Positions 5,825 to 63,521 of a DNA stretch of 64,000 nucleotides are shown here, in pieces (position 1 is the stretch's first letter; each line of letters starts with the position of its first letter). The position numbers were made by a program, and so were the translations under genes. The notes beneath the pieces were generated by a model. The model was not told the DNA's origin. It did no database searches and saw only the letters and a program-made list of their open reading frames with translations. Source of the stretch: a virus; the IMG/VR virus record IMGVR_UViG_3300032304_001060, positions 30,729 to 94,728 of that record. One strand, given 5' to 3'.

Positions 5825-6095
5825 ATCAGAATTACTAGACGGCATGACACCGACGATCACAGGTGCGCCATGTCAATCAACAGAACCAGAGATATTCTTT
5901 CCAGACCCAACTGATTACGAAACGATCAAGGTTGCCAAAGAATTTTGTGCATCATGTAAGGCAGACGTTAAAAATAAATGTCTGTCATTCGCTCTCGAAA
6001 ACAAGATTTGGTATGGAGTCTGGGGAGGACTTACAGAACGTGAACGCATGAACTTCCGCAGACAACAGATGAGAAGGGAATATCGGAATGACTGA
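5811..6095 (+). CDS. whiB: WhiB-family transcription factor
   Basis: APCQSTEPEIFFP...CASC...KC...GVWGGLTERER: four Cys and GVWGG turn. Confidence 0.93.
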   Translation: MTTARSELLDGMTPTITGAPCQSTEPEIFFPDPTDYETIKVAKEFCASCKADVKNKCLSFALENKIWYGVWGGLTERERMNFRRQQMRREYRND

Positions 6096-14476: not shown

Positions 14477-14764
14477 TTAGGCTTGTGGTGTCTCTATGCC
14501 ACGATCGCTTAATGCAGATCGTAACTTGGCTTTTATCTCTTCAGACTCATCTTTTGGCTGTAGGAGTGGAGCAATCGATCGTGCAATTCGATCTGCAAGC
14601 AACTGGCTCTCAATATCGGTGACTAACTCTTTGCTGCAGCCAAATACGTCGTAGGTAGTTGCTTGACGGCGAGTGTTCTCATCCGCAGGGTGTAGGTGGG
14701 TCGACATTGTTCCATCAGCATTGATAACAACCGTGTAGGCTGCCTCAATCATCTTCTCATCCAT
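14477..14764 (-). CDS. hypothetical protein
   Basis: starts MDEKMIEAAY, TAATG-coupled to upstream gene. Confidence 0.7.
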   Translation of the reverse strand: MDEKMIEAAYTVVINADGTMSTHLHPADENTRRQATTYDVFGCSKELVTDIESQLLADRIARSIAPLLQPKDESEEIKAKLRSALSDRGIETPQA

Positions 14765-15318
14765 TATCGCAATCCTTCCATGAGTTTCTGCTTGCGTTGT
14801 GCTACGCCTATCGCTACTGGACAAAAATCGCATAGGTAAGTCTTTTGTCCTGGGGAATCTTTGTACTTCTCCATACCTTCTGCTTGACGCTCTTTTTCTG
14901 TCTTAGGAATGAGCATCTTGTCGACATCGTGCCAATCAGAGCACCCATCTTTAGGTTGGTTATGGCGACGATAACATGTCATTGCATCATCCATGAAGAT
15001 AGATCGTGAGTCATAGAAGGTGTCATCGATCTCTGCAAGGCCTTTGGAACCGCCACCTTTAATCTGGCGAATGATCTCTTGCTTCGATTTGGTATCAGCC
15101 CATGAACGGAGAGGTAGAACAAATAACTTGCCCTTATGTGGCTCTCCTGATGGGAATACGTGGTTCTCACATGCAACAGCCAAGAGCATGTCTAACTCTG
15201 GATCGCCGTCGTATGGAGGGAGTTCTTCTAGTGATTGGCAGACAAGGCAAAATAGCAAACGAAACATAGGTTCATTTGCTTCTGGCTTCTTCTGTCCAAG
15301 AATGGGTACGTTACTCAT
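14764..15318 (-). CDS. hypothetical Cys/His-rich protein
   Basis: CLVC, CENH, C-x3-H, CSDW, CDFCP; AAGGAG RBS. Confidence 0.75.
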   Translation of the reverse strand: MSNVPILGQKKPEANEPMFRLLFCLVCQSLEELPPYDGDPELDMLLAVACENHVFPSGEPHKGKLFVLPLRSWADTKSKQEIIRQIKGGGSKGLAEIDDTFYDSRSIFMDDAMTCYRRHNQPKDGCSDWHDVDKMLIPKTEKERQAEGMEKYKDSPGQKTYLCDFCPVAIGVAQRKQKLMEGLR

Positions 15319-15367
15319 GGTGCTCCTTATAGTAGTCCGATTAGTCTAACAGATTGCGGAACTTCTC

Positions 15368-15601
15368 TTATTCTCCTGTTTTGTACTGAATGCGTTGAGA
15401 GGACTCGTCGTAAGGACGTAACTCTGTATAAGCCCATGAGGGTTTTCCAGTACGCTCTGCGTGGGCATCGACTGCTCGCCGCATTGCTGCACGACCTTGA
15501 GGACTGCCTAGATCATGGTGACGAATCTTTTGGTTGTCTGTGCCCATACCACCGTTGGTGATGTAGTACTTAGTAGCACGATTGGGAACTTTAGCAGCCA
15601 T
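15368..15601 (-). CDS. hypothetical protein
   Basis: 77 aa in tightly packed operon. Confidence 0.65.
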   Translation of the reverse strand: MAAKVPNRATKYYITNGGMGTDNQKIRHHDLGSPQGRAAMRRAVDAHAERTGKPSWAYTELRPYDESSQRIQYKTGE

Positions 15602-15603
15602 GA

Positions 15604-15888
15604 TTACTTCCCACTCACTGGTGGAAATCTAAACTCGCTAGGATTCTGTGGTCCACTTGGAGTCTTAGGAATTGGTGGGACAGGTGTTTTTGGGCGTGAA
15701 GTAGGGGTTCCTACTTGCAGAATGTTTCCAGCACGAGTGTGTGCCCGTTGCTGGAAAGCATTTTGCCAGATCGGATGGCTTGCAGGAAAAGTAAGTATTT
15801 GATTTTTAGGCATTGGAGTTACATTTGGTTTGAGGAAATTTTTGACTTTTGCACCAACAGACTTAAATTGGCGAGGAGAAAGGTTCAT
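15604..15888 (-). CDS. hypothetical basic Pro-rich protein (N-terminal LSxxQF)
   Basis: MNLSPRQF; GGAGG RBS. Confidence 0.65.
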   Translation of the reverse strand: MNLSPRQFKSVGAKVKNFLKPNVTPMPKNQILTFPASHPIWQNAFQQRAHTRAGNILQVGTPTSRPKTPVPPIPKTPSGPQNPSEFRFPPVSGK

Positions 15889-15891
15889 AGG

Positions 15892-16065
15892 TTACTTACC
15901 TCCAAAAAGTGCTTTTCCGATAACTTTTTGAGCATCAGTTACTTTGGCATGTCTTTCGTAATCAAAATTAGGATCAACATGAATCATTCCGCAAGATGGA
16001 CATGGATTATTCATGTCGACTTTGCGCTTAGGATCTTTATTACGATCTGGAACTGTGTCAGCCAT
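15892..16065 (-). CDS. hypothetical protein (57 aa, not in ORF track)
   Basis: MADTVPDRNKDPKRKVDMNNPCPSCGMIH...LFGGK; fills the gap exactly. Confidence 0.65.
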   Translation of the reverse strand: MADTVPDRNKDPKRKVDMNNPCPSCGMIHVDPNFDYERHAKVTDAQKVIGKALFGGK

Positions 16066-16067
16066 GA

Positions 16068-16268
16068 TTACTTACCTGGGTTTACTTTACTTGGATACTC
16101 AGAAGTGATAAACCCATAACCATAGAATGGGTGCAGTGTCTGACGGTTGTTCACTGTAGAGGCAGAGTCCATCGTTACTTCTGTATCTGGACGTGCCTTG
16201 CGATACTTGCCGTCTGTGGCTCCCTCATCGAGTGATGAATTCATTGAACGTGATGTATTAACTGCCAT
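16068..16268 (-). CDS. hypothetical protein
   Basis: 66 aa, packed operon. Confidence 0.65.
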   Translation of the reverse strand: MAVNTSRSMNSSLDEGATDGKYRKARPDTEVTMDSASTVNNRQTLHPFYGYGFITSEYPSKVNPGK

Positions 16269-16270
16269 AA

Positions 16271-16555
16271 TTAAATAACCTTCTTCTCTGCTTGTTGCTT
16301 TGCTTCAACAACTCTTGCGCCTTCTTGGTAGCGATCACCACGATCTTCGGTGTTGTAACGTGTTGTATTTGCCCAACCAGCCTCACGTGCTGCGCTCTTA
16401 ACCTGGCTGCGCTCGTACTTACCTTCGCCACTTTTCCAACTATCTTTCGAAGTATCAGGCATTGCCTTGATACCACGAGCACCTGCTGCTGATGCTTTTG
16501 CAAGAGCCTCAACTTGTGGGCTCTTAAACTTTACACGACGGTCTCTGAATAACAT
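16271..16555 (-). CDS. hypothetical protein
   Basis: 94 aa, TAATG coupling. Confidence 0.65.
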   Translation of the reverse strand: MLFRDRRVKFKSPQVEALAKASAAGARGIKAMPDTSKDSWKSGEGKYERSQVKSAAREAGWANTTRYNTEDRGDRYQEGARVVEAKQQAEKKVI

Positions 16556-16758
16556 TAGATCATTTTACCTTTCACTCTTTTTGCATTGCGCTGAGTTATA
16601 CAGGACAGGCAATGACCTCGATTGCTTAGAAATTCTACGGGATTCATAACAACTCCGCAGGTTGGACATGGGGAAGATCCATTATATTTTGTGGCGTTTT
16701 CAGCGATCTGTCGCGCCTGCAACTCCATAATTAACATGCCATCACCGTCGTCAGCCAT
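16555..16758 (-). CDS. small zinc-finger protein
   Basis: CPTC...CLSC. Confidence 0.65.
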   Translation of the reverse strand: MADDGDGMLIMELQARQIAENATKYNGSSPCPTCGVVMNPVEFLSNRGHCLSCITQRNAKRVKGKMI

Positions 16759-16760
16759 AA

Positions 16761-17003
16761 TTATCCTATCTGAACAGGTCCAGGAGTGCGTTGAACGGTT
16801 TGATTACTGGCTTGTCCACCAGAGCCACTTACCATTGCTGATGCACCGAATTGAGCAGCGCTCATTATGTTGGATCTACTTAACGCTCCTGCTCCAAGTC
16901 GGGTTGCGCCAAGGCGAGTTGCTGCTGCGCCCAATGCACGACTTCCAAGAAATCGTGCTGCTGTTCCACCTGCTACAGGTGCAAGCGGTGCTAGAAATGC
17001 CAT
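16761..17003 (-). CDS. hypothetical Ala/Gly-rich protein
   Basis: 80 aa, GGAGG RBS, TAATG coupling. Confidence 0.6.
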   Translation of the reverse strand: MAFLAPLAPVAGGTAARFLGSRALGAAATRLGATRLGAGALSRSNIMSAAQFGASAMVSGSGGQASNQTVQRTPGPVQIG

Positions 17004-22746: not shown

Positions 22747-23076
22747 TTAATCCTTGTCTACGCTGAAAATAAAATCTCTGAGGGTCATCTTCTTCTTAAA
22801 CTTCTTTTGCCACTTTCGTATTAGTGCGTTTCTTTCTCGGTGAGATAGCCCGCCCCAAATACCATGAGGTTCGTCACGGGATACTGCATCCCACAAACAC
22901 TCGGTTCTTACTGGACATGGATTCTTTCCTGTCTCTCCAAAGCAAAAGCCTTTTGCTTGCGTAGCCAAAGTCTTGTACTGCTCTTTATCACGAGGTGGAT
23001 AAAAGATGAGCGTTGTTTCGTCTTGACCTTTACAACGGGCTTTGTATCGCCAGATGTAATCTGGTTCGTCTTCCAT
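22747..23076 (-). CDS. whiB: WhiB-family transcription factor
   Basis: WRYKARC...FYP...FC...CPVRTEC...GIWGGLSHRER. Confidence 0.93.
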   Translation of the reverse strand: MEDEPDYIWRYKARCKGQDETTLIFYPPRDKEQYKTLATQAKGFCFGETGKNPCPVRTECLWDAVSRDEPHGIWGGLSHRERNALIRKWQKKFKKKMTLRDFIFSVDKD

Positions 23077-30444: not shown

Positions 30445-31376
30445 CATAAGTAAGCAGCCTTCCCTAGTACCGATGTCTTTGCCGTTTTAATTCCGTGCTC
30501 AATCTCAGCCTCTGTCATGTCACCAACATCCTTGACGTCAATTCCACGATAGTTGAAATAGTATAAATCCATACCGTACTTTCTAGCAAAGCCACGCATC
30601 TGTTCATTAGCCGTATGACCAGCCTTGTCATTATCGAACGCAGCAATAATCTTTGGAGCACGGCGCAAAATCTTGGCTTGCTCTTCACTCATGATTGCAC
30701 CAAAAGTGGACACAGCGTTATGGCCTAAGCCAGTTAACCGAACAGCGTCTAGCGGTGATTCAACAACGATGAGGTCATGGGTTGAACTCATGATGTGAAC
30801 TCCAAAGACTGTCCTTGACTTCTTAACTCCCGCAGGTTGATTGCGAAAGAAGCGTCCACGAGCACCCTTCTCTTGCCAACCCCATAACGAACCGTCGTCA
30901 GGGTCTCTGATAGGAAGAATCCATGCCTCATTGCTCTTGTCCCAAAGAACTCCATGTACATTTACTGGACCTATTTTTAAGAATCGTTTTTTTAACTCTA
31001 TCTCTGGTGGCTCTGTGTACACAGCAAGTCGAGCCTCAGACATTGCGATCGTCTCTTCAGGTTGCACGTACTGTGGTAAATCTTTTATTCGGCGCATAAG
31101 AGAGTCGAGAGGAATCTCAACATTTTCGCCAATGTAGTCCTGTGCATCAAAATAACTTATGCCTTTAACATCAGCAACAAGTGTGAATATATTTCCCTTG
31201 TAACCACAAGAGAAGCAGATGTGTGCTCCACTCTCAGAATTTATCCACCATGATGGTGAGTGATCCTCTTTGCCTGTGCGCTTCTTGTGCATTGGGCATA
31301 GGCCATTAACCTCAACTCCTCGCTGTGCAAAAAGTTGTAGGTCAAGTCCTACGAGGACACGCTCGACATCAATCAC
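30444..31376 (-). CDS. dnaG: DNA primase (CHC2 zinc finger plus TOPRIM)
   Basis: CPMH...CFSC, VVESPLD, FDNDKAG, KDVGDM. Confidence 0.92.
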   Translation of the reverse strand: MIDVERVLVGLDLQLFAQRGVEVNGLCPMHKKRTGKEDHSPSWWINSESGAHICFSCGYKGNIFTLVADVKGISYFDAQDYIGENVEIPLDSLMRRIKDLPQYVQPEETIAMSEARLAVYTEPPEIELKKRFLKIGPVNVHGVLWDKSNEAWILPIRDPDDGSLWGWQEKGARGRFFRNQPAGVKKSRTVFGVHIMSSTHDLIVVESPLDAVRLTGLGHNAVSTFGAIMSEEQAKILRRAPKIIAAFDNDKAGHTANEQMRGFARKYGMDLYYFNYRGIDVKDVGDMTEAEIEHGIKTAKTSVLGKAAYL

Positions 31377-36038: not shown

Positions 36039-36598
36039 AGGTCGATGCCCCGTGTGTCATCGTCCTCGGCCATCCTTTCACGGATCGTCTCAGTCAGGAC
36101 GTCGAGTACGGCTGAGGTCACGTAGGCGGCAAGGCTCTCGGCAAAGATGGCCATGCTCGTAGTCATGACGTCGTAGAGTTCCTCTGTCTCGTCATCGGAC
36201 TCGTAGTCAAGTTCGATCTGGTCTAGGCCATCGCTGATGTCCCACATGTCGATAGCGAAGTCCTCAAGGGAGTGAACGACCTCGTGGATATCGAGGCTCT
36301 CGTCCCAGACGACTGCCAACACATCGTTGGACGATAACTCTCGCGTAATGTCTTTTACGGGATCACTAGAGAACGTTATTTGATCCTTATGTACTGGCTC
36401 TTCTATGGAAGCCTCTTCTGAGAAATAGAGATGGAAGTCTCCAAATTCCATAGCGGATTTTACGGCGCTCTTTGCGTAGTCTCCATACTCATCGATAGCA
36501 ATGAGGAACTTTGCTTCTGGGTATTTAACGCCAAGTGCCTGCATTCCAGTAGTGACATCGATATCTGGATCAAAACTAATTACCGCAATCTTTTTCAT
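36035..36598 (-). CDS. hypothetical acidic protein
   Basis: 187 aa, 4-nt overlaps on both sides. Confidence 0.75.
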   Translation of the reverse strand: MKKIAVISFDPDIDVTTGMQALGVKYPEAKFLIAIDEYGDYAKSAVKSAMEFGDFHLYFSEEASIEEPVHKDQITFSSDPVKDITRELSSNDVLAVVWDESLDIHEVVHSLEDFAIDMWDISDGLDQIELDYESDDETEELYDVMTTSMAIFAESLAAYVTSAVLDVLTETIRERMAEDDDTRGIDL

Positions 36599-36870
36599 CC
36601 TAGCCCTCTTAATCTTGGGACAGTTGTTGCAATAGGTCTGTTTATAAGTTTACTGATCATCAGTGTAACAAATGCAGTTGCGGGAGTTGCAACCACTAGT
36701 GTTATGTCTACAACATCAAGAAGATAAAGCCCGCCAACACTAAGTGGCAATGAGAGTGCCTTGTTCAATATAGGCACACCAAAAAAGTTGCGAGTTAATA
36801 AATCTAAAAACTCAATGATGTAGGTAGAGGCAGTTCCAACGATTACGATAGTGATAAGTAGGTCAGTCAT
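36595..36870 (-). CDS. small multi-TM membrane protein (holin-like)
   Basis: 2-3 hydrophobic segments, basic C-terminus; leaderless TAATCT-N7-ATG. Confidence 0.55.
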   Translation of the reverse strand: MTDLLITIVIVGTASTYIIEFLDLLTRNFFGVPILNKALSLPLSVGGLYLLDVVDITLVVATPATAFVTLMISKLINRPIATTVPRLRGLG

Positions 36871-53396: not shown

Positions 53397-53571
53397 TCTT
53401 TTTTTTCTTTGAAAGTCTCGTTTCTGAAAGAGCAATAGCAACCGCCTGCTTCTTTGACTTAACGACAGGCCCCTTACCAGGGCCCTTCTTTCCAGAGTGC
53501 AACTTTCCTTCTTTGTACTCTTTCATGACAGTTTCAACTTTACCTTTAGATGCTTTCTTTGCTGCTGCCAT
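53386..53571 (-). CDS. DUF6496-like basic protein
   Basis: KVETVMKEYKEGKLHSG...VKSKKQAVAIALSE. Confidence 0.8.
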   Translation of the reverse strand: MAAAKKASKGKVETVMKEYKEGKLHSGKKGPGKGPVVKSKKQAVAIALSETRLSKKKKNGK

Positions 53572-53729
53572 TACTCTTCCTCTTTCTCGTCATCTTCGAA
53601 GTCTTCGAAGTCATCTTCATCCCAGTCATCATCTTCATCATCAAACTCATACTCTTCAAGATCCTCTAAGTCAATGCCATCGGCTTCGAGGATGAGGTCC
53701 TCGTTAAACTCAGTCTCAAAGTCTTCCAC
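53571..53729 (-). CDS. extremely acidic small protein (52 aa, 33 Asp/Glu; not in ORF track)
   Basis: GTG start after AAGGAG; MEDFETEFNEDL...DDEDDDWDEDDFEDFEDDEKEEE; TAATG-coupled. Confidence 0.7.
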   Translation of the reverse strand: MEDFETEFNEDLILEADGIDLEDLEEYEFDDEDDDWDEDDFEDFEDDEKEEE

Positions 53730-53741
53730 TTACATCTCCTT

Positions 53742-54179
53742 TTAGTTAACAGTCAATCCAGTTCCTGCAAGAATCCAACGTTCTGCGCCTACTTTTAGTA
53801 GGGTAACAATACGATTGGCTGAAATATTGTACGTTTGATTACTGGCCAGTCCTTCACAAACTAGCGTTGTAGTCGAAGTGTTTGCTCTGCTTATCCGTAG
53901 TGTTGCAGTATCTGAGGTTACTAGCAATATAACAGTTCCAACAGCAAAAGCAACAGAGGTATTACTAGGAATAGTAACTTGAACAAGTCCAGTACCAGAG
54001 GCATAGATATGCTTTCCTGCATCTGTTAGCACAAGAGAGTATGTAGTTGGTGCAGTCCTTGACTGCTGTGCAATAAGTTTTGACTCAAGAGTTGTCACTC
54101 TCACATCAATTCCAGAGATAGCAGTATTTAAACGACCACTCCAGTTTCTATCTCCACTGTTAGGCAATACAACTGTCAT
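53742..54179 (-). CDS. virion fibre-associated domain protein (paralog of 58220-58582)
   Basis: TYSLVLTDAGK...VTIP...FAVGT...TLLKVG..RWILAG. Confidence 0.7.
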   Translation of the reverse strand: MTVVLPNSGDRNWSGRLNTAISGIDVRVTTLESKLIAQQSRTAPTTYSLVLTDAGKHIYASGTGLVQVTIPSNTSVAFAVGTVILLVTSDTATLRISRANTSTTTLVCEGLASNQTYNISANRIVTLLKVGAERWILAGTGLTVN

Positions 54180-54821: not shown

Positions 54822-55571
54822 TTATTTTAAGTTTCCTCGCTGATGGTCTGGGTATGGGGCGTTGTCTAAGTGAACGCCTTTAAAATACCTTCTTCCAGCC
54901 ATATGGGGCTTCTCTAGATCATCGGTAGAACGTTCTTTTCCTAAAGCGCTACTTTCCGCAACTTCATTTGCGTGTAGTTCTTTGTCCTGTATTAGTGCTA
55001 ACTCAAACCCCTCAACAAAATACCTTGGTATAGGGATAAAGGCTCCCAACGCGTCACCCTTCTTTACAGAGACAGTGTGATTTGGGACTGTAACTTTAAG
55101 GTTAAAAGTAAAGTCTCTTCGAATGTTGTCTGTTTCAATAACCCCCGTCATAGCAACGCAACCTTCAACGAACATGTTAGGTGGCTGAATGGTCATCAAG
55201 TTAATTCCAGGAGGTGTTTTTAAAGCAAAGTGATTTTGGACTGTAATAATCCCAGAACCAAATCCATTTGTAATAAATTGTTTTGGAAACTCTTCATCAT
55301 CTTTAAAAGTTATTACAGCAGGTAACAGTTCCCCATACCATACAACATCAAAGTCTCTTGCAGATTGAACCATAAACCCATATTGATTTCCAACACTTAA
55401 AGGTAAACAGTAGTAAAAGTGTGAGGTAAACCAATCTCTTTTTGGAACACCTTTTAGCGGAACGATGATGTCCTTATAGAATCCGTCATTATCAAGAGAA
55501 TGAGGTACAACCATAAGGGTATTGTTTGGGACTTCATGCCCAGGATCATTAAGATAGTTTTTTTCAGTCAT
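54822..55571 (-). CDS. DUF6065-like protein
   Basis: YCLPL..GNQYGF, FGSGII, TPPG.NL....PPN, GVIETD, FTFN. Confidence 0.75.
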   Translation of the reverse strand: MTEKNYLNDPGHEVPNNTLMVVPHSLDNDGFYKDIIVPLKGVPKRDWFTSHFYYCLPLSVGNQYGFMVQSARDFDVVWYGELLPAVITFKDDEEFPKQFITNGFGSGIITVQNHFALKTPPGINLMTIQPPNMFVEGCVAMTGVIETDNIRRDFTFNLKVTVPNHTVSVKKGDALGAFIPIPRYFVEGFELALIQDKELHANEVAESSALGKERSTDDLEKPHMAGRRYFKGVHLDNAPYPDHQRGNLK

Positions 55572-56415
55572 AGAGGAGTCCCGTTTCTTTACAAAACTTT
55601 AAAAACTTTTGATAATTAATTTTATAATCTTTTAATAATTCTTTCTTTGATTTTTTATTTTCAATATCAATTAATCTTGTTACCCTGTTTTTCTTGTCCC
55701 AAGGTTTGGGGTCACTGTTATACGCAATCCTGTCTATTGCGTAGAAGTGATAGAATATTGGATCGGTAAAAGCACAGACTTCATATCCTGCTTGATATGC
55801 TCTAATTGAGTTTATTGTTTCTTCCAAAAAGAAACTAACATCAGAAATAATAGGTACTTCTAGTAAGAATTTTTTTTCTGAAAAAAGTAAGGCTCCTTGT
55901 ATGTAGTAACTTTTTGCAGTACTCGATATCCGATTTTTTACTCCCCACTCACCAAACGTAACTCCTTTAAAAGAACACATAACGTGAGATTGATCTTGTA
56001 ACGGTTGTCTATTTCCAGTTGAGTCAATCGAATAAGCAGCAGGATAAGAAGATAACACCAATTTTGGTTTTGTTGTTTTTTCTTTTTCATACAAAGCCAT
56101 TAGTTTTGTGTCCCACGACTTTTCCGAGAACATATGGGCATCTAACTGTAGGTAATACGTGTAGTTGCTAAATTGAGAAACCGCGACCGCTCTAGCCCAA
56201 GAAACTCCATACGAATCATCTGGATTAATTTTTATGTATCGAAGTTGTTCCATCTCAATAAAACTAAGATCAGGATGATCTGTGCTCTGAGATACTATTG
56301 AAAACAAAAGATTTTCTGGGTAATCAGCATCCTCAAAAAACCGTTTAACTGTATTTTCTAACTCAGTCTCCATGTAAGAGACTATCGAAATTAGAATCTT
56401 CCTATTGTTGACCAT
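55564..56415 (-). CDS. GT60 glycosyltransferase (Skp1-hydroxyproline GlcNAc-transferase-like)
   Basis: ISIVSY...T...F..A.YP, GVSWAR, YYLQLDAH (DxH), WD, VLSSYP, EE..SIRAY..GY, FYHFY. Confidence 0.85.
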   Translation of the reverse strand: MVNNRKILISIVSYMETELENTVKRFFEDADYPENLLFSIVSQSTDHPDLSFIEMEQLRYIKINPDDSYGVSWARAVAVSQFSNYTYYLQLDAHMFSEKSWDTKLMALYEKEKTTKPKLVLSSYPAAYSIDSTGNRQPLQDQSHVMCSFKGVTFGEWGVKNRISSTAKSYYIQGALLFSEKKFLLEVPIISDVSFFLEETINSIRAYQAGYEVCAFTDPIFYHFYAIDRIAYNSDPKPWDKKNRVTRLIDIENKKSKKELLKDYKINYQKFLKFCKETGLLYD

Positions 56416-56944
56416 CTGCATAAGCCCAAAATGACGCAATAGTGTAACGTGTATTTCCTTCTACCTTTGTTACTCCGTGCAAATGGTCTGCATCCCCTAA
56501 ATGAATTGCAAGTTTCCCACTTTCTGGCGTTACTTCAATATTGTAATTTGGATAGTATGTATGGCCACCTTCATAATCCTCATTTAAATAAATGATGGCT
56601 CCAAATTTTCTGTGCTCTAATCCTTTTACTTCTGTATTGGTCATGTCATCTGCATGAGGGGGCTGCTCCATACCAGGGTACCAACGACAGATAGTTAGCC
56701 CATCTTCTCTTACTTTTTTCCCGTAAGAAGACTCAATGACGTCTTGAACTCTGCGGGATACATCCACCATAAAATCACCAAGTTCGTTCCCGAAGTATTC
56801 GTAGGCTGCTTGTACTCCGATAGTTCTTTTATCCCAAAAGTCTACAGATGAGGGTTCCCATAATTCGGTTTCTTTTACAAGGTTTAAAACAAACAAGACT
56901 TCTTCATTAGTCAAGAACTTATCAACGATCGTTGTTTTTAGCAT
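56402..56944 (-). CDS. prolyl-4-hydroxylase-like 2OG-Fe(II) oxygenase
   Basis: PHAD, IIYLNEDYEGG, HGVTKV, RYT: HxD...H triad plus 2OG-binding Arg. Confidence 0.9.
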   Translation of the reverse strand: MLKTTIVDKFLTNEEVLFVLNLVKETELWEPSSVDFWDKRTIGVQAAYEYFGNELGDFMVDVSRRVQDVIESSYGKKVREDGLTICRWYPGMEQPPHADDMTNTEVKGLEHRKFGAIIYLNEDYEGGHTYYPNYNIEVTPESGKLAIHLGDADHLHGVTKVEGNTRYTIASFWAYADGQQ

Positions 56945-57172
56945 TTACCATTTTCCTATCGGGCATTTTGCTGCTTGTAGTTTGGTTTTGAGTTCCATAA
57001 AACACCCACATTTCTTACACTGTTTTGTTAACTTTACCAATTCTGGGCATTCCATGCATATCTGCATTCGCTCTATATTTATGGTGCTTTCTGCATACTT
57101 GGTTTGTGGGTTTAAAAAATCTAACGGAGTTACACCATGTTTTTCCCGATACTCCTCCCACCTCGACTTCAT
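56945..57172 (-). CDS. DUF6171-like Cys-rich protein
   Basis: R..IC..C...CKKCGCF..LKT....CP.GKW. Confidence 0.8.
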   Translation of the reverse strand: MKSRWEEYREKHGVTPLDFLNPQTKYAESTINIERMQICMECPELVKLTKQCKKCGCFMELKTKLQAAKCPIGKW

Positions 57173-57173
57173 C

Positions 57174-57554
57174 TTAAGGAACTAATCCATTCATATTTCT
57201 ATCTGTTAGTACAAATGCGTTATCAATAAACTTAGCATGTGGAGAACTGACATAAAGACCATACGGATAGTCCAGCATCTTTAATACCTGTGGATTACTC
57301 AGTAGAATACTTCCAAAGTACTCGCTAGTCTGGAAATCTTCCAAAATGATTCCATCTTTTAGTAGGCGCACTGTTATGCCGTCATGATCAGGGTGTTCAT
57401 TAGATATGTCGACTACTTCATCGGCATTTAAAAAAATGTCAGCATGTTCTACGCTTAACGCCAGATCATATAAACAATCTTGGTCAATTACCCATACTAA
57501 TGCTATTCCATCTGTTCCAGTATGAACAAAGTGGATACCTTCATCAGTTAACAT
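57174..57554 (-). CDS. hypothetical protein
   Basis: 126 aa, AAGGAG RBS, SILLSNPQV. Confidence 0.75.
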   Translation of the reverse strand: MLTDEGIHFVHTGTDGIALVWVIDQDCLYDLALSVEHADIFLNADEVVDISNEHPDHDGITVRLLKDGIILEDFQTSEYFGSILLSNPQVLKMLDYPYGLYVSSPHAKFIDNAFVLTDRNMNGLVP

Positions 57555-57574
57555 TTTTGTTCTCCTTTATACAA

Positions 57575-57610
57575 ATGTGTGTACCTTACAATATCGTAAG
57601 GTACACACAT
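57575..57610 (-). terminator. perfect 15-bp hairpin (attenuator or mRNA stabiliser)
   Basis: ATGTGTGTACCTTAC-N6-GTAAGGTACACACAT; short U run on the minus strand. Confidence 0.75.
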
Positions 57611-57614
57611 CCGT

Positions 57615-58220
57615 TTAGCAAGCGAAGACATTGAATGAGCCAGATGCTGGTGAACAAGTGCTTCCTGCACCAAGTTCTCCGCACGATGATGTGCTGGTAC
57701 AGCATGCGACCGCTATCTGTCCACTGGTGCATCGCCTTAGGGTAGGAGCAGGCGGTGGTGGCGGTGGTGGCGGAGGTGGAGGAGGTGGAGGAGGTGGAGG
57801 AGGAGGAGGAGGTGGAGGAGGAGGAGGTGGAGGAGGAGGTGGAGGAGGTGGAGGAGGTGGAGGAGGTGGAGGAGGAGGAGGAGGAGGTGGAGGAGGAGGA
57901 GGAGGTGGAGTAGGTGCCACAGGAGTAACAGAGTTACTTGCTGCAGATGAGTCTGAGAGAACTGAATAATCTGTTGTGCCAGAAATTGTAAAAGTATAAG
58001 CCGTTCCATTTGAAAGGCCTGAAACTGTAATAGGGGAACTTGATCCAGTGCCTGCAATCGATCCTGGAGAAGAAAGTACGGTGTAGGTGATTCCGTTCTT
58101 GCCAATATAAGAGGAGGCTGTGAAAGTTACAGTAGCAGCGGCGTCACCAGCAACAGCACTGCCAGTACCAGGTGTCGTTGGTTTTTTACCGCTAGAACCT
58201 GTAGTTCCCAGAACTGCCAT
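57615..58220 (-). CDS. Fn3-domain protein with 53-residue polyproline tract and Cys-rich tail
   Basis: Fn3 motif SPITVSGLSNGTAYTFT; P53; six Cys in the last 38 aa; TAATG coupling. Confidence 0.85.
   Translation of the reverse strand: MAVLGTTGSSGKKPTTPGTGSAVAGDAAATVTFTASSYIGKNGITYTVLSSPGSIAGTGSSSPITVSGLSNGTAYTFTISGTTDYSVLSDSSAASNSVTPVAPTPPPPPPPPPPPPPPPPPPPPPPPPPPPPPPPPPPPPPPPPPPPPPPPPPPPPPAPTLRRCTSGQIAVACCTSTSSCGELGAGSTCSPASGSFNVFAC
57750..57908. repeat. (NGG)53 triplet repeat encoding polyproline
   Basis: AGG/TGG/CGG triplets only (CCT/CCA/CCG codons, no CCC). Confidence 0.95.
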
Positions 58221-58582
58221 TACGCACTCAAATCGCCAACAAGAACCCAAGTATCTGTAGCACGCTTAATTAAAGTTGCAGATGCCCACTGTGTTCGTAA
58301 CTTCAATCCAGGTGTTGCATTGATAGTGACTCCAGCGCCTGCGGTAATTGTGAATTGTCCTGTAGCAACTTGGAGCATATCGATCTGAGCGCCGATTGGG
58401 AATGGCACGGAAGAGTTAGGTGGCACAGTAAGAGTTGCAGCAGTGGTGCTGTTGTTTAACTCCAGGAAGCGATCCTTATCAGCCAACACCAATGTGTAGT
58501 TGTTGGTTGTGATAGTCGGAGTGGCAAGGTTCTTAGAGCCAACTCCTACAAATGCTGAATCGCCATTGCTGCGAATTGCCAT
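58220..58582 (-). CDS. virion fibre-associated domain protein
   Basis: NYTLVLAD...LTVPPNSSVPFPIG...ATLIKRATDTWVLVGDL. Confidence 0.8.
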   Translation of the reverse strand: MAIRSNGDSAFVGVGSKNLATPTITTNNYTLVLADKDRFLELNNSTTAATLTVPPNSSVPFPIGAQIDMLQVATGQFTITAGAGVTINATPGLKLRTQWASATLIKRATDTWVLVGDLSA

Positions 58583-58978: not shown

Positions 58979-59542
58979 TTAGCCTATTTTCTCTAGATTG
59001 TTGGTAATTGCAGTTCTATAGATGGGGGCGATATCTTCTTTGAGTAGGTCTCGGAATATCTGAGTCGCTTCATCTTGGCGCCCTACCCACCATCCGCTGA
59101 CTGCCTTCTCAAAGCGCAGTACGTATTCTCCCAGATAATCAAGATCAATAGGTAGAGCAGATAAGTGTGTTCTGGAGAAGAGGAGCCCCACCTCACACGC
59201 TGTATATGACTCTTGCCATTTCTTTGTCTGCTCATAGTGACGGGCCAAAATAAACCACGCCTCTGGTCGATGAGGCAGATATGCGATGGCCTTAAGGATG
59301 AGGTCCATCACCGTATGCTCACGGTTCTGTTGGTGCTTAAAGCACTCAGAGGACTTAAGCAGTGCAGCATAGACGTACTCTGGATGGCTCTCGTAGCCGT
59401 ACTCTGCAGTACGTAGATAGAACGAAACCGCTGATGCGGTCTGTCCTTCCTTCTCATATTCTTGCGCCAACTTAAAACTAAGTTCAGGGTTAAATGGATC
59501 ATCAGATAAGGTGATGATCATGTCGTTGATAGTCTCAAACAT
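58979..59542 (-). CDS. TPR-repeat protein
   Basis: LAQEYE..GQ.ASA.SFY, AIAYLPHRPEAW. Confidence 0.8.
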   Translation of the reverse strand: MFETINDMIITLSDDPFNPELSFKLAQEYEKEGQTASAVSFYLRTAEYGYESHPEYVYAALLKSSECFKHQQNREHTVMDLILKAIAYLPHRPEAWFILARHYEQTKKWQESYTACEVGLLFSRTHLSALPIDLDYLGEYVLRFEKAVSGWWVGRQDEATQIFRDLLKEDIAPIYRTAITNNLEKIG

Positions 59543-60533
59543 TTAGCGCCTCCTGTACAAGTTCGTCTACAACATCCTTCGGTATCTCTAATGCGAAGGC
59601 GGCGTTATCAACGAACCCGAACCCAACAACTAAGTTCTCATTAACGATAGCGGCTCCAGCACAGAACTCAATCTGTCCATTGAGGAATGACCAGTTCTCT
59701 GGAGATAGGCCAATGAGTTTAAAGTTATCGTCCCAGACACAGAGGCGATGGCGATAGGTGCCGTTCTTCTGTCCTAGGTAATTCTTGAATAGAACAACCT
59801 CGTGCGTGATAGCGATGTAGTAATCGCCCCAACGAATAACTTGAGAACCACCACGCTGATCAGCATTTGCACGGGCGCCTTGAGTATGAGAGATATGAAC
59901 TGAATCTCCAGTAACGGGATCTGCCTCTACCACTTCGGTAGGGCTAGTCCACTTCACATACTGGAACTGACGATCAAGGATAGGCATCCAGTTCTTCTCG
60001 CAGTACGAGTCCTTGTTGATAGGCGCCTCCACACGCACACGGGAAATCTCCTTGGCAGTCCACGCCTCTTTGTTAATCTCTAACTCAGATAACTCCATGC
60101 GGCCAACGCCGTTGGTCGTGGTATCACGACGGACACCTGTGGCGTAGTACTTGCCATCCCACTTAACGAGGCGAGCATCTTCTTCGCCAACGAATGTCCA
60201 GATGGGAGTGACATCTAGTTCAGATGTATCTATCTGGCAGTACTTGACGATGTTCAAGTCGTCATCAAGTTTAAGCAGATAGTTAGTCGTAACTAGACGG
60301 CGATCTTCCTCTGGATGCAGATAGGAGAGAGGTCCCCAGACACTTGGGAAGCGCTGGTTATTCTCTGCATGGTAGAGGGTGTAGTTGATGTGGCGCAAGA
60401 TACATAGGATGTCGCCATCATCGTCTACGAAGAGAGATGGATTCATCAAGCCAGTTCCGTTTGTTACGGATGCTGGAATAATGAGGGGCCGTAATTTTCC
60501 GCCTTGAGAGGTTGCTCTTTGTACCAGATTCAT
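59535..60533 (-). CDS. five-bladed beta-propeller glycoside hydrolase/transferase (GH130/GT91-like)
   Basis: NPS, EDARL, EKNWMP, RGGS, HE, YRHR, IEFCAG. Confidence 0.75.
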   Translation of the reverse strand: MNLVQRATSQGGKLRPLIIPASVTNGTGLMNPSLFVDDDGDILCILRHINYTLYHAENNQRFPSVWGPLSYLHPEEDRRLVTTNYLLKLDDDLNIVKYCQIDTSELDVTPIWTFVGEEDARLVKWDGKYYATGVRRDTTTNGVGRMELSELEINKEAWTAKEISRVRVEAPINKDSYCEKNWMPILDRQFQYVKWTSPTEVVEADPVTGDSVHISHTQGARANADQRGGSQVIRWGDYYIAITHEVVLFKNYLGQKNGTYRHRLCVWDDNFKLIGLSPENWSFLNGQIEFCAGAAIVNENLVVGFGFVDNAAFALEIPKDVVDELVQEALNV

Positions 60534-60826: not shown

Positions 60827-61723
60827 TTAGTAGTATAAATAAATTACGCCGTTGCCGCCATTGCCGCCTGTACCTGACCTATTGGTACCACCACCACCAC
60901 CACCACCATCTCCACCGTTACCGCCAGTGTTTCCAGATGCGTTGGCGCCAGCACCGCGATAGCCACCGCCACCGCCACCAGCACCATCAGTTACAGCACC
61001 AGTGCAAGTTGAACCAGTACCACCATTATACAAATCACCATTGCCGCCTGCGCCACCTGTTGTGGTTCCAGTAGGAGAAGCATTTGTATTATTGGCACCT
61101 CCACCACCGCCACCAATTAAACCTCTGCCACCTGCACCGCCAGTGGTTGAAGTAGCCGCAGTTGCGGTGTTTCCATAACCACCACCACCACCTGATACAC
61201 CAGCGCCGCCAGCAACTCCATTTGTTGAACCACCACCACCGCCGCCTCCATAACCAACAGCGCCAGTAGCAGCGGCGGAAGGAGCGCCTGTATATGAAAC
61301 TCCACTTGCACTTGGTCCACCATTTCCAGCACCACCACCTGCGCCACCCATTGTTCCAGCAAGCGCTGCTAGGACACCACCACCACCAGCACCACCACCA
61401 GCAAAAACCATCCCAAATATAGTTGAGCCACCAGTACCACCACTGGAAACTGAACCACCAGTTCCTCCTGCACCTACAGTGCAAGTATTTGTTACATAAG
61501 TCCAACCAGCAGAATAACCACCACCACCACCACCACCACCTGCGCCACCAGCAACTGCGGTTTGGCTTCCACCACCACCTCCGCCGCCAATGCAAACTGC
61601 ATATACGCGTTTGATTTCAGCGGGGATTCCAGTAACCGATCCTGATGAAGTAATTGTTTGTTGTAGTTTTAATCCCAATGGAACATCAGAAAATGATGAA
61701 TTTGTATTTATCGTTTCGCTCAT
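60827..61723 (-). CDS. glycine-rich adhesin/fibre protein, copy A1
   Basis: polyGly motifs; C-terminal GVIYLYY. Confidence 0.85.
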   Translation of the reverse strand: MSETINTNSSFSDVPLGLKLQQTITSSGSVTGIPAEIKRVYAVCIGGGGGGGSQTAVAGGAGGGGGGGGYSAGWTYVTNTCTVGAGGTGGSVSSGGTGGSTIFGMVFAGGGAGGGGVLAALAGTMGGAGGGAGNGGPSASGVSYTGAPSAAATGAVGYGGGGGGGSTNGVAGGAGVSGGGGGYGNTATAATSTTGGAGGRGLIGGGGGGANNTNASPTGTTTGGAGGNGDLYNGGTGSTCTGAVTDGAGGGGGGYRGAGANASGNTGGNGGDGGGGGGGTNRSGTGGNGGNGVIYLYY

Positions 61724-61733
61724 TTAGTTTCCT

Positions 61734-62657
61734 TTAGTAGTAAAGATAAAGTACGCCGTTACCACCAGTGCCGCCTGTTCCTGAATTGTTTGCGGCTCCA
61801 CCACCGCCACCACCATCTCCGCCGTTACCGCCGTTGTTTCCTGAACCAGCAGCACCTACTCCTATGTAGCCACCGCCACCGCCGCCTGCGCCTGCGGTTA
61901 ATCCTGATGCAACTGTTGAACCTGCACCGCCGTTAAACAAGTCTCCGTTACCGCCAGCACCACCTGTTAAGGCTCCAAGTGGTAGTGCGTTGTTGTTGTA
62001 AGCACCACCGCCCCCGCCAGCAATTAAACCTCTACCACCAGCACCACCTGTTGCAGTGTTTGTAGAACTTGTTTGTAAGGCTGCAGCGCCACCTGAACTT
62101 GATACACCAGCAGCACCTGCACTGGCAGTAAAAGAATTTGCGCTACTTGATGCACTTGGTCCACCAGCACCATAACCTATGGTTCCACCTACTGCTGCGG
62201 CAGCCGATGGCGCACCTGTGTAACTAATTCCACTTGCTGAAGCACTTGGTGCAGCACCAACAGCAGATAATGCACCGCCACCGCCTGCGCCGCCCATTAC
62301 TGTGGCAGTTCCATTTGCAGTTCCAGAGCCACCTGCACCACCGCCTGCAAAAACCATCCCATAAACAGTTTCGCCACCGCGTGAACCATTGGATACGGAA
62401 CCGCCAACACCACCTGCACCTACAGTGCAAGTGTTGGTTACGTAAGTCCAGCCAGCAGAATAACCACCAGCCCCACCGCCACCACCTGCTCCCGTTGCAG
62501 AACCGCCACCACCACCACCTGCAATGCAAACTGCATATACACGTTTGATTTCAGCAGGAATTCCAGTAACTGAACCTGATGAGGTGATAGTTTGTTGTAG
62601 TTTTAATCCCAATGGAACATCAGAAAAAGATGAATTGGTGTTTATTGTTGCACTCAT
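61734..62657 (-). CDS. glycine-rich adhesin/fibre protein, copy A2
   Basis: N-terminus nearly identical to A1; C-terminal GVLYLYY. Confidence 0.85.
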   Translation of the reverse strand: MSATINTNSSFSDVPLGLKLQQTITSSGSVTGIPAEIKRVYAVCIAGGGGGGSATGAGGGGGAGGYSAGWTYVTNTCTVGAGGVGGSVSNGSRGGETVYGMVFAGGGAGGSGTANGTATVMGGAGGGGALSAVGAAPSASASGISYTGAPSAAAAVGGTIGYGAGGPSASSSANSFTASAGAAGVSSSGGAAALQTSSTNTATGGAGGRGLIAGGGGGAYNNNALPLGALTGGAGGNGDLFNGGAGSTVASGLTAGAGGGGGGYIGVGAAGSGNNGGNGGDGGGGGGAANNSGTGGTGGNGVLYLYY

Positions 62658-62669
62658 AATAGTTCCATT

Positions 62670-63521
62670 CTAATAGAAAATGTAAAGTATGCCTGCGCCG
62701 CCAGTGCCAGGTGCAGATGAGCCGTGTCCACCACCACCACCACCACCACCCAAACCACCATCGCCACCAGTAAATCCCGAAGCATTAGAGCCGTTACCTG
62801 CAATACCCGCACCACCACCGCCTGAGGTATTTGATGATGGGCTTGTAGAGCCCGTTCCACCTGTGTAAATAGTTCCATCTATACCAATGCCGTTACCACC
62901 GTTACCGCCTGTGCGTGTTCCTGTAGTAGTAGATGCAATTCCACCACCGCCACCAGCAAGACCAGAACCACCATTGCCACCAATGTTTGTTCCAGAACCT
63001 GCGGTGCCATTAGGCGCACCACCACCACCTGAAATACCGTTGCCACCATTAGCACCAGAAGTACCAGTTGCACCACCTGCGCCAGAGCCAACATTGTTGG
63101 AAGCGCCACCAGGAATACCCCAATAATTAGTTCCACCAGCACCGCTATTGCCACCCGCGCCCAGTGTGCCACTATCACCTGCGCCAGCAATGATGTGACC
63201 ATAGCGTGTGTATCCTGCAGAACTTCCATTAGGAACTCCACCTGCACCAATGATGCAAGAAGATTGTGGGATAGTCCAACCCCAAGAGATACCACCTGCG
63301 CCACCACCGTTGCCTTGATTCACGCCTCTTTGACCACCACCAGTCAGAATGACATAGACAAATGGAATATCAGCGGGAATTGTTACCGCACCCGATGAAG
63401 TAATTGTTTGGCGTAGTTGTAAACCAAATGGAACTGCAAAAGATGTTTGTGCAATAGGAGTAGAAGAATTATTCCAATTTAAAACCTGCCCCGTTGGGCG
63501 TTTATTTAATGGGTTTGACAT
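62670..63521 (-). CDS. glycine-rich adhesin/fibre protein, copy B1
   Basis: GLQLRQTITSSG, polyGly motifs; C-terminal GILYIFY. Confidence 0.85.
   Translation of the reverse strand: MSNPLNKRPTGQVLNWNNSSTPIAQTSFAVPFGLQLRQTITSSGAVTIPADIPFVYVILTGGGQRGVNQGNGGGAGGISWGWTIPQSSCIIGAGGVPNGSSAGYTRYGHIIAGAGDSGTLGAGGNSGAGGTNYWGIPGGASNNVGSGAGGATGTSGANGGNGISGGGGAPNGTAGSGTNIGGNGGSGLAGGGGGIASTTTGTRTGGNGGNGIGIDGTIYTGGTGSTSPSSNTSGGGGAGIAGNGSNASGFTGGDGGLGGGGGGGGHGSSAPGTGGAGILYIFY

Follow-up and report, generated by a model that had tools for sequence, protein, structure and literature searches.

Rigid shafts built of proline occur in the hydroxyproline-rich glycoproteins (HRGPs) of plants and green algae, such as extensins, Chlamydomonas wall proteins and agglutinins, in which a polyproline-II (PPII) shaft owes its rigidity to hydroxyproline (Hyp) and O-glycans and bears globular or Cys-rich heads. 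These proteins are secreted, are modified in the endoplasmic reticulum and Golgi, contain Ser-Hyp(n)-like motifs and carry arabinose or galactose. The subject of this report is a phage protein of similar outline, encoded on the minus strand of a 64,000-nucleotide stretch of viral DNA (hereafter the window; positions 30,729 to 94,728 of IMG/VR record IMGVR_UViG_3300032304_001060). In this protein of 201 residues, 53 consecutive prolines (P53) join a fibronectin type III (FN3) domain to a small Cys-rich knob, and downstream of its gene lies a gene for an oxygenase of the prolyl 4-hydroxylase (P4H) type. Unlike the HRGPs, the phage protein lacks a hydrophobic signal sequence at its N-terminus (MAVLGTTGSSGKKP...) and would be expected to stay in the bacterial cytoplasm; its tract is a pure Pro homopolymer for which Hyp is only predicted, and neither the Ser-Pro(3-5)-like glycomodules nor the secretory signal peptide of extensins were found in it. 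It works like an HRGP at most and is not a member of that class.

Other proteins with Pro-rich spacers resemble the phage protein in part. The Pro/Thr linkers of bacterial glycoside hydrolases and the Pro-rich spacer of TonB run in an extended form between folded modules, often near FN3 domains and with variable length. These linkers are of mixed composition (PT, EP/KP) and shorter, and none is known to be a homopolymer of 53 residues or to have a dedicated hydroxylase cassette. The FN3 domain of the phage protein finds its best match in that of chitinase A1. In tailed phages, Ig-like and FN3 domains are found in decoration proteins and fibres (T4 Hoc, for instance), where they form a module of the structural region with hypervariable outward parts; the known examples are chains of folded domains. 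On the enzyme side, poly(L-proline) is a substrate of P4Hs from plants, algae and viruses.

The P4H of the chlorovirus PBCV-1 (vCPH, 5c5t) is the closest match to the modelled structure of the phage enzyme. It is likewise a small, virus-encoded monomeric enzyme, although it comes from a eukaryotic algal virus and shares 14% sequence identity with the phage enzyme. PBCV-1 P4H hydroxylates Pro-rich repeats such as (PAPK)n (PMC3634087), and no natural substrate or role is known for it (PMC7019647). For the PBCV-1 gene no linkage to substrate genes is known; the phage gene has a candidate substrate upstream and DUF6171 and DUF6065 genes as partners. The combination of a P4H with a glycosyltransferase (GT) has been described in the Skp1 pathway of Dictyostelium and Toxoplasma, in which the cytoplasmic P4H PhyA acts first and is followed by the Hyp-specific GT60 alpha-N-acetylglucosamine (GlcNAc) transferase Gnt1 (PMC6939170). 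The phage locus is comparable in that its P4H-type gene overlaps a gene of the PF11397/GT60 type. In contrast, Skp1 is modified on a single Pro that serves as an oxygen-sensing signal, whereas the candidate acceptor in the phage is a homopolymer of 53 residues in a presumed structural protein, and most relatives of the phage cassette are without a GT.

Pro-rich linkers, FN3 decorations of phages, viral P4Hs and the P4H and GT60 pair of protists are already known. A literature search found no polyproline rod-and-knob protein in a phage, no linkage of such a protein to P4H, DUF6171 and DUF6065 (with or without GT60) and no substrate of a phage P4H. P4H genes are abundant among phage 'auxiliary metabolic genes', and their use has been described as cryptic (PMC9301287). 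The linkage described below gives these genes a likely substrate. It is proposed, tentatively and with some reserve, that freshwater actinophages carry a self-contained hydroxyproline system consisting of a rod-and-knob protein, P4H, DUF6171, DUF6065 and in some cases GT60, which would make extensin-like, possibly glycosylated rigid appendages in the bacterial cytoplasm. If true, bacterial viruses would gain their first hydroxyproline (glyco)protein, and the widespread, cryptic 'P4H auxiliary genes' of phages would be accounted for. Confirmation would establish Hyp-based, possibly glycosylated structural rods in bacterial viruses, provide functions for DUF6171 and DUF6065, and turn the relatives into a natural polyproline 'ruler' series from P10 to P68 whose lengths evolve quickly.

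A modular protein with a proline linker

The gene and the parts of its product are the following (window coordinates):

57615 to 58220, minus strand: gene of the FN3-P53-Cys-knob protein, 201 residues (open reading frame, ORF, with its stop codon at 57615-57617; homologues of the N-terminal part)
57909 to 58220, minus strand: N-terminal 104 residues, a short conserved leader and the FN3 domain, ending in the family motif SNSVTPVAP (AlphaFold2, AF2; Foldseek; relatives)
57750 to 57908, minus strand: interdomain polyproline linker of 53 Pro codons (codon count; Pro-rich linkers at the same place in relatives)
57618 to 57749, minus strand: C-terminal tail of 44 residues with six Cys, a portable knob module (the same knob ends the protein P0123)

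Two features indicate that the product has 201 residues: its ATG, at 58220, shares bases with the stop codon of the gene before it (TAATG), and P0002 and P0003, the closest relatives, begin with the same 'MAVLGTTGS'. Its 53 consecutive Pro codons, (GGN)53 on the plus strand, are far beyond chance. The original prediction, made from the DNA letters, described 53 uninterrupted prolines without any CCC codon in a frame that continues into a Cys-rich tail, and this description was confirmed by the codon count (35 CCT, 15 CCA, 3 CCG and 0 CCC) and by the six Cys of the tail.

In the AF2 model of the protein, residues 11-130 have predicted local distance difference test (pLDDT) values of 86-96, and the tail, at ~40, is an unreliable model. 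The top Foldseek match of the N-terminal domain is the FN3 domain of Bacillus circulans chitinase A1 (1k85, TMt 0.81), and FN3 domains of titin and NCAM come next. All top matches are FN3 domains, and the modelled fold is their seven-stranded beta-sandwich. Because no Pfam family matches the 201-residue protein at E<=0.01, its assignment to FN3 is drawn from the predicted fold and from its homologues, and PF00041 is precomputed on some relatives of the N-terminal part. NCBIfam matches of the protein (an Ig-blocking protein and a MXYO-CTERM protein) were ignored, as they lie far below the cut-offs.

The N-terminal part has 1490 homologues at E<=0.01 and is found at no fewer than 533 loci in IMG/VR. 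In GenBank phages, the FN3 part has no protein match at E<=1e-8 and the phage has no DNA relative. Judged from these searches, the FN3 family is large and confined to uncultured phages. All homologues have in common the FN3 module with SNSVTPVAP at its end, and the region after the motif is hypervariable. Linkers at this position include polyP (9-36 residues), (PPFF)n, (PPVT)n, (TPPP)n, (PPSF)n and (PPPIIAT)n, and behind such Pro-rich linkers the relatives carry a small knob with 4-18 Cys, nothing, or a Hint-like domain. In relatives that are free of a linker, a Gly-rich domain of ~270 residues takes its place. The knob 'WYCS...YPAYPTLPC' stands behind P27, P36, P10, (TPPP)8 and (PPPVT)n, and this independent shuffling of knobs and linkers indicates that the P53 tract is a linker between two independent modules. 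The Cys tail of the phage protein has one true relative, the end of P0123 (79% identity, all six Cys kept), which has a different, unrelated N-terminal domain and is without a Pro linker. No match of the tail was found in Pfam, PHROG or NCBIfam and no relative among the 80 FN3 loci, its resemblance to the tail of L008 covering only nine residues.

The presence of Pro-rich linkers of differing sequence and length between FN3 domains and Cys knobs in hundreds of relatives backs the spacer role that had been proposed for the tract, and it is very likely that P53 is a spacer within a modular protein. The accompanying proposal that the tract is kept by selection has to be restricted to the class of linker, since the closest FN3 relatives (79-81% identity) carry (PPPVT)n-type linkers and not polyP. 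In a separate group of relatives (L068-L070, L075-L081, P0053 and P0078), the FN3-(PPFF)n linker is followed by a domain of ~190 residues that starts with Cys and has a precomputed intein/Hint match (PF14890); behind the Pro linker of these relatives, this domain may be a self-cleaving or self-ligating module.

The oxygenase cassette and its linkage to proline-rich genes

Downstream of the P53 gene, the window contains a hairpin and a compact group of genes:

57571 to 57614, minus strand: perfect hairpin of 20 bp, one base past the stop codon (minimum free energy -31.3 kcal/mol, z -6.95)
57174 to 57554, minus strand: ORF of 126 residues, the first after the hairpin (no Pfam or PHROG match; in only 5 related loci)
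56945 to 57172, minus strand: small Cys-rich DUF6171 protein (PF19668, E 1.7e-7; 0-nt gap to the P4H gene)
56402 to 56944, minus strand: P4H-type 2-oxoglutarate (2OG)-Fe(II) oxygenase, 180 residues (PF13640, E 2e-8; single copy, the only PF13640 gene of the phage)
55564 to 56439, minus strand: GT60-type polypeptide GlcNAc-transferase-like gene (PF11397, E 1.5e-29; overlaps the P4H gene; the true start is probably an internal ATG)
54822 to 55571, minus strand: DUF6065 protein (PF19541, E 6e-35; overlaps the GT gene by 8 nt)

The cassette begins right after the hairpin and its five genes, from the 126-residue ORF to DUF6065, are separated by gaps of +1, 0, -38 and -8 nt. In the oxygenase, the iron triad (H97-x-D99 and H156), the 2OG-binding R166 and the motif 'YLN..Y.GG' are invariant in 29 homologues. 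Its AF2 model (pLDDT 94.9) has PBCV-1 P4H as the top Foldseek match (E 3e-10), followed by P3H1, Bacillus anthracis P4H, PHD2 and Chlamydomonas P4H, and almost all matches listed are prolyl hydroxylases. A phmmer search of the PDB at E<=0.1 gave seven matches, all of them prolyl hydroxylases and all weak (E ~1e-3 or weaker). The triad, together with the double-stranded beta-helix of the model, identifies the enzyme as prolyl-hydroxylase-type, as far as a predicted structure allows. Its action on the peptidyl Pro of P53 is a candidate activity suggested by gene linkage. No GenBank-phage protein matches the enzyme at E<=1e-8, and at E<=1e-3 the only matches in GenBank phages are oxygenases of cyanomyoviruses and Methylophilales phages (~29% identity). 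A side observation concerns the annotation of such cyanophage genes: L291 (NC_047718.1, Synechococcus phage ACG-2014b, 19853-20329) and PHROGs 2297 and 274 are annotated as 'DNA endonuclease' or 'DNA endonuclease V', which looks wrong, as these genes are 2OG-oxygenase relatives of the P4H-like enzyme (~29% identity over 96% of the length).

The product of the overlapping GT gene matches the GT60 profile PF11397 with 104 bits against a cut-off of 21, over profile positions 95-286 of 352; no solved homologue was found by sequence. In its translation, D100-A-H102 follows a hydrophobic strand, YYLQL, and is a candidate for the metal motif of the GT60 GT-A fold; a literature search found no paper that confirms this motif for the family. 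The GT60 family includes the Hyp-directed Gnt1 as well as a trypanosome enzyme directed at Thr (PMC6939170). Fusions of DUF6065 with PF13640 oxygenases occur in a viral ESM Atlas cluster of 84 members, and fusions with Cupin_8/JmjC occur in bacteria.

The evidence that connects this cassette with the tract comes from the genomic context of the enzyme in other loci. In a set of 58 enzyme loci, Pro-rich ORFs were defined as same-strand ORFs with at least 40% Pro in a window of 30 residues. Such an ORF was present upstream of the enzyme in 32 of the 35 loci with at least 2.5 kb of upstream sequence. The distribution was strictly polar, with 44 Pro-rich ORFs upstream (37 distinct; 241 kb searched) versus none downstream (298 kb searched), and most of the upstream ORFs end 200-733 nt before the enzyme gene. 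The Pro-rich carriers are not limited to FN3 proteins: others have a short conserved N-terminal peptide or a fibre-tip-like domain, or are multi-knob proteins of ~690 residues with P24 and P17 linkers. DUF6171 was found in 54 and DUF6065 in 47 of 57 P4H-centred loci, and a GT in 11 of the 57; these frequencies define a conserved unit that consists of a Pro-rich protein, DUF6171, P4H and DUF6065, in that order, with the GT as an optional member. Seen from the FN3 side, where absence was scored only if at least 5 kb of downstream sequence was present, a P4H-like gene was present in 44 and absent in 3 loci with a Pro-rich linker, and present in 4 and absent in 12 loci without one. In the phage itself the pair is one-to-one, with one PF13640 gene and the P53 protein as its only genuine polyproline protein. 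The linkage of P4H, GT60, DUF6171 and DUF6065 to Pro-rich genes lends weight to the earlier suggestion that the tract is a modification scaffold, the basis being gene linkage only.

Among the relatives, two combinations of linker and enzyme were noticed. (PPFF)n/(PFF)n linkers, often without a knob, pair with a distant P4H subtype (~28% identical, 198 residues, with an insertion), next to which DUF6065 is present and DUF6171 mostly absent (L002, L004, L022, L025, L028, L034, L037, L047, L055, L057, L063, L071 and others). PolyP and PPxT linkers with knobs pair with DUF6171 and its P4H subtype. This suggests that the enzyme subtype is matched to the linker type.

The hairpin is an unusually stable element, as none of 200 shuffled sequences folds as well, and it is followed by AAAGGAG, a strong Shine-Dalgarno sequence, and the ATG of the next gene. 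It is probably a terminator, an attenuator or a 3′ stabiliser of the mRNA between the substrate gene and the enzyme genes; a simple terminator scan did not list it because a clean T-run is absent.

On balance, and by a modest preference, these results favour a model, built from sequence, in which the P53 protein would be a spacer rod displayed on the virion and hydroxylated, perhaps also glycosylated, by the phage. The FN3 module would probably attach to the virion or to the co-translated fibre-tip-like protein encoded just upstream. The tract would form a PPII spacer with a contour length of up to ~16 nm (53 x 0.31 nm = 16.4 nm), and the six-Cys knob would serve as a tip that can be exchanged and probably binds a ligand. 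Pro of the tract would be turned into Hyp by the P4H-type oxygenase together with DUF6171 and DUF6065, which accompany it almost constantly. In a following step the GT60 enzyme might attach GlcNAc to Hyp, in the manner of PhyA and Gnt1, which act in succession on Skp1 in the protist cytoplasm, and the presence of Hyp-GlcNAc on the tract is regarded as possible though rather doubtful. Both modifications would be expected to favour trans bonds, to stiffen the rod and to shield it from proteases. Occasional cis bonds leave unmodified polyproline only semi-rigid in water, and since the PPII helix is stabilised, and the trans form favoured, by 4-Hyp and Hyp-O-glycans, modification would turn the tract into a real rod. 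The rigid rod of 16 nm that was originally predicted is thus retained as a contour length, and its rigidity does not hold for unmodified polyproline. Duplication or slippage of 9-nt units would shift the length of the tract quickly, which would make 'reach' an evolvable trait, and the position of the hairpin would fit a high ratio of substrate to enzyme expression.

Several observations weigh against this model. The location of the protein on the virion is argued from neighbouring genes only, and a strong hairpin lies between the P53 gene and the enzyme genes. With GT60 in so small a share of the P4H loci, glycosylation is no general part of the system. The disulfides of the knob could form only after lysis, or its Cys could bind metal, and the model of the knob is unreliable. 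Hyp has never been found in PBCV-1 virions despite an active P4H (PMC7019647). The notion that a P4H accompanies every long polyproline tract was rejected, as the DNA fetched for 117 other loci with 36 or more CCN codons contained a P4H-like ORF in just 5 cases. Finally, the tree of FN3 proteins contains about six transitions, one of them on a supported branch; with so few transitions a sign test is powerless and the association on the FN3 side, for which Fisher p-values are therefore not taken as independent evidence, is not independent of ancestry. Common descent, or an accessory island that both share, could explain it.

The alternative that draws most on these observations, which is unlikely but has to be taken seriously, is that the tract is a plain, unmodified spacer and that the cassette acts on a translation factor of the host, on a different phage protein or on a small molecule, its proximity being due to a shared variable accessory region near the fibre genes. 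Pro-rich linkers do function unmodified in many proteins, and a P4H of the B. anthracis type is reported to modify EF-Tu (title of PDB 5v7y). The separating hairpin, the 5 of 117 polyproline loci and the powerless phylogeny-aware test would all agree with this explanation. So would the nearest cultured relatives of the enzyme, in cyanomyoviruses, which adjoin tail-fibre genes and had no Pro-rich neighbour at the one locus inspected; this context and the low count among other polyproline loci indicate that the linkage is a property of the freshwater family and not of polyproline in general. However, an unmodified spacer does not account for the strict polarity and proximity of the Pro-rich ORFs, for a linkage that holds across carriers with unrelated N-terminal modules, or for the lack of the enzyme in 12 of the 16 FN3 relatives without a Pro linker.

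Repeat structure, length variation and rarity of the tract

Tandem Repeats Finder resolved the P53 tract into a 9-nt unit (CCA CCT CCT on the coding strand) with 17.4 copies and 87% match, and an exact repeat of 41 nt occurs within it at an offset of 72 nt. On account of these repeats, the tract looks grown by unit duplication. The mixed codons emphasised in the original prediction are indeed present, but they are not independent synonymous choices. The lack of CCC can be viewed in the same way: in long ORFs of the window ~8% of the Pro codons are CCC, and among isolated Pro codons of related loci 6.7%, so that ~4 would be expected among 53 independent codons versus 0 observed. The explanation of this lack by selection was rejected in favour of genome codon bias and unit duplication, which account for most of it. 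The longest mononucleotide run within the tract is 2.

The length of the tracts varies much faster than their flanks. Three contigs from different samples are identical at 298-300 of 300 nt directly upstream of the tract, yet they encode P25, P27 and P36, with differing codon orders; two of the three are also alike at 147 of 150 nt downstream. Two members of one 90%-identity cluster differ by two PPPVT repeats, and L216 and L220 carry P27 and P31, respectively, in a protein that is otherwise identical. The length variation by slippage that had been anticipated is supported by these cases; either the tracts are truly hypermutable or the assemblies are noisy at tracts. L085 (IMGVR_UViG_3300008110_002533, 1736-2170) is a particular case: its P25 tract includes 7 CCC codons and its frame stops directly behind the tract ('GI'), whereas L086 and L087, which are near-identical, run on into the knob. 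A frameshift, or an error of assembly in a C-run, is the apparent cause in L085.

A scan of 2.9 million IMG/VR contigs for 36 consecutive CCN codons revealed at least 118 stretches of this length or longer, which corresponds to a lower bound of ~1 contig in 25,000. Such tracts are rare, not unique, and the idea that P53 is unique was rejected, as tracts reach P103. In the 117 other loci examined, runs have a median of 43 and a maximum of 103 codons, 20 loci have runs of at least 53, and in 74 loci the longest ORF lies in the Pro frame. Far longer apparent polyproline, or polyglycine on the other strand, was seen in L233 (P103), L205 (P89), L179 (P86), and L244 and L248 (P80). These five have no P4H-like gene within the DNA fetched and could be giant viruses or contig-end artefacts.

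It is improbable that the length of 53 is an assembly artefact, whether by expansion, by collapse or as the consensus of a mixed population, an explanation that would be compatible with any of the other readings. The tract has features that invite such errors: with 159 nt it is longer than typical short reads, it has a 9-nt period and its repeated k-mers persist up to k=41. The exact 201-residue protein occurs in no other assembly, no copy being found in a collection of 15 billion proteins, and noise in the assemblies would also produce the 25, 27 and 36 codons of the near-identical contigs and the truncated frame of L085. Nevertheless, the tract and its flanks contain no repeated 55-mers, which means that an assembly with k>=55 can in principle resolve them; the frame is kept into a tail that is conserved in P0123; and P49 and P68 in cassette-linked relatives, together with P103 in other viral contigs, place 53 within the natural range.

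A precursor of the type of ribosomally synthesised and post-translationally modified peptides, with FN3 as leader or recognition domain, a Cys-rich core that is modified and released and the Pro tract as spacer or cleavage region, is a very remote alternative. A conserved N-terminus and a hypervariable Cys-rich C-terminus beside tailoring enzymes do resemble precursor clusters; however, Pfam and PHROG scans of the cassette revealed neither a protease or cyclase nor a radical-SAM enzyme or transporter. The N-terminal part folds as an FN3 domain, the gene has fibre-like structural genes around it and a fibre-tip-like gene as its coupled neighbour, and some relatives have large Gly-rich or Hint-like domains where a short core would be expected.

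Hardly credible is the possibility that the GGA/GGT-rich template strand is a DNA-level element whose quadruplexes regulate transcription or replication, with coding being secondary: a folding model in which G-quadruplexes are allowed tiles the plus strand with thirteen two-layer quadruplexes, and (GGA)4-6 runs occur there, but the tract holds G2 runs only, its GG-N periodicity is automatic from CCN codons, and relatives stay Pro-rich with quite different DNA (PPFF, PPVT), which points to selection at the protein level. No canonical G-quadruplex (at least four runs of at least three G with short loops) was found in the tract, the sole GGG of the scanned stretch lying outside it. The G-quadruplexes suggested for this strand are therefore reduced to a formal potential, the inevitable complement of CCN codons.

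Neighbouring genes, phage genome and probable host

The genes around the P53 gene and its cassette, and two markers of the host, are listed below:

58220 to 58582, minus strand: fibre-tip-like protein of 120 residues, translationally coupled to the P53 gene (PHROG matches; upstream in 66 of 80 related loci)
58979 to 59542, minus strand: TPR protein overlapping the gene of the 332-residue protein (PHROG match annotated as glycosyltransferase)
59535 to 60533, minus strand: protein of 332 residues (ESM Atlas lead only: GH130-type sugar enzymes, 32% of the members of a cluster ranked 15th)
60827 to 61723, 61734 to 62657 and probably 62670 to 63521, minus strand: tandem Gly-rich paralogues (PF21722; PHROG 'tail fiber assembly')
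53742 to 54179, minus strand: second small protein, in kind a paralogue of the 120-residue protein, that matches the C-terminal tip of PHROG 8780 ('minor tail protein')
5865 to 6050 (contig 36593-36778), plus strand: WhiB-family gene (L172/L173; profile match over the Pfam cut-off)
22822 to 23052 (contig 53550-53780), minus strand: WhiB-family gene (L172/L173; profile match over the Pfam cut-off)

The 120-residue protein matches the C-terminal ~100 residues of PHROGs annotated as virion structural, minor tail or tail fibre proteins. In L116, a single polypeptide combines a homologous tip domain (40% identity, E 2e-19) with a (VTPP)n linker and Cys modules. The Gly-rich, tail-fibre-like paralogues lie further upstream, with myovirus tail genes nearby; their antisense frames mimic Pro-rich ORFs, and in many FN3 relatives their Gly-rich domain takes the place of the Pro linker and knob. 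The annotations of the TPR protein and the 332-residue protein may indicate further sugar chemistry upstream of the P53 gene.

The window is the right-hand part of a record of 94,728 bp that has direct terminal repeats of 123 bp and is estimated to be complete. The phage encodes myovirus sheath, tube, tape measure and baseplate proteins, as well as ribonucleotide reductase, a family-A DNA polymerase, a DnaB-type helicase and an integrase. The two WhiB genes have E-values of 1.6e-19 and 9.4e-17, and among the control genomes the WhiB family was found in Corynebacterium only. As whiB is an accepted actinophage marker in freshwater metagenomics (PMC6802176), two such genes make an actinobacterial host likely, and the phage, on this sequence evidence, probably infects an actinobacterium. 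When cellular genomes were scanned with the enzyme profile, no host signal emerged, the matches being scattered over bins of metagenome-assembled genomes from many phyla that are probably mis-binned phage contigs.

The host also matters for the synthesis of the tract. That runs of Pro need elongation factor P (EF-P) is, as the original prediction held, established biology, and with 53 consecutive Pro, compared with the three or more that define an EF-P-stalling motif, stalling of the ribosome is predicted. The phage encodes neither an EF-P homologue nor tRNA genes, so that translation of the tract must depend on host EF-P. XPPX motifs are unusually numerous in Actinobacteria, whose EF-P is active unmodified (bioRxiv 10.1101/2023.09.18.558224), and the P53 tract would be an extreme natural test case of EF-P-dependent translation in this group. 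Outside the window, ~14-16 kb before its start, an ORF of 722 residues (contig 14692-16857, minus strand) contains a long PEPT-type linker (PEPTPTPEPQPSPEP...); it is a second Pro-rich protein of the phage and could be another substrate.

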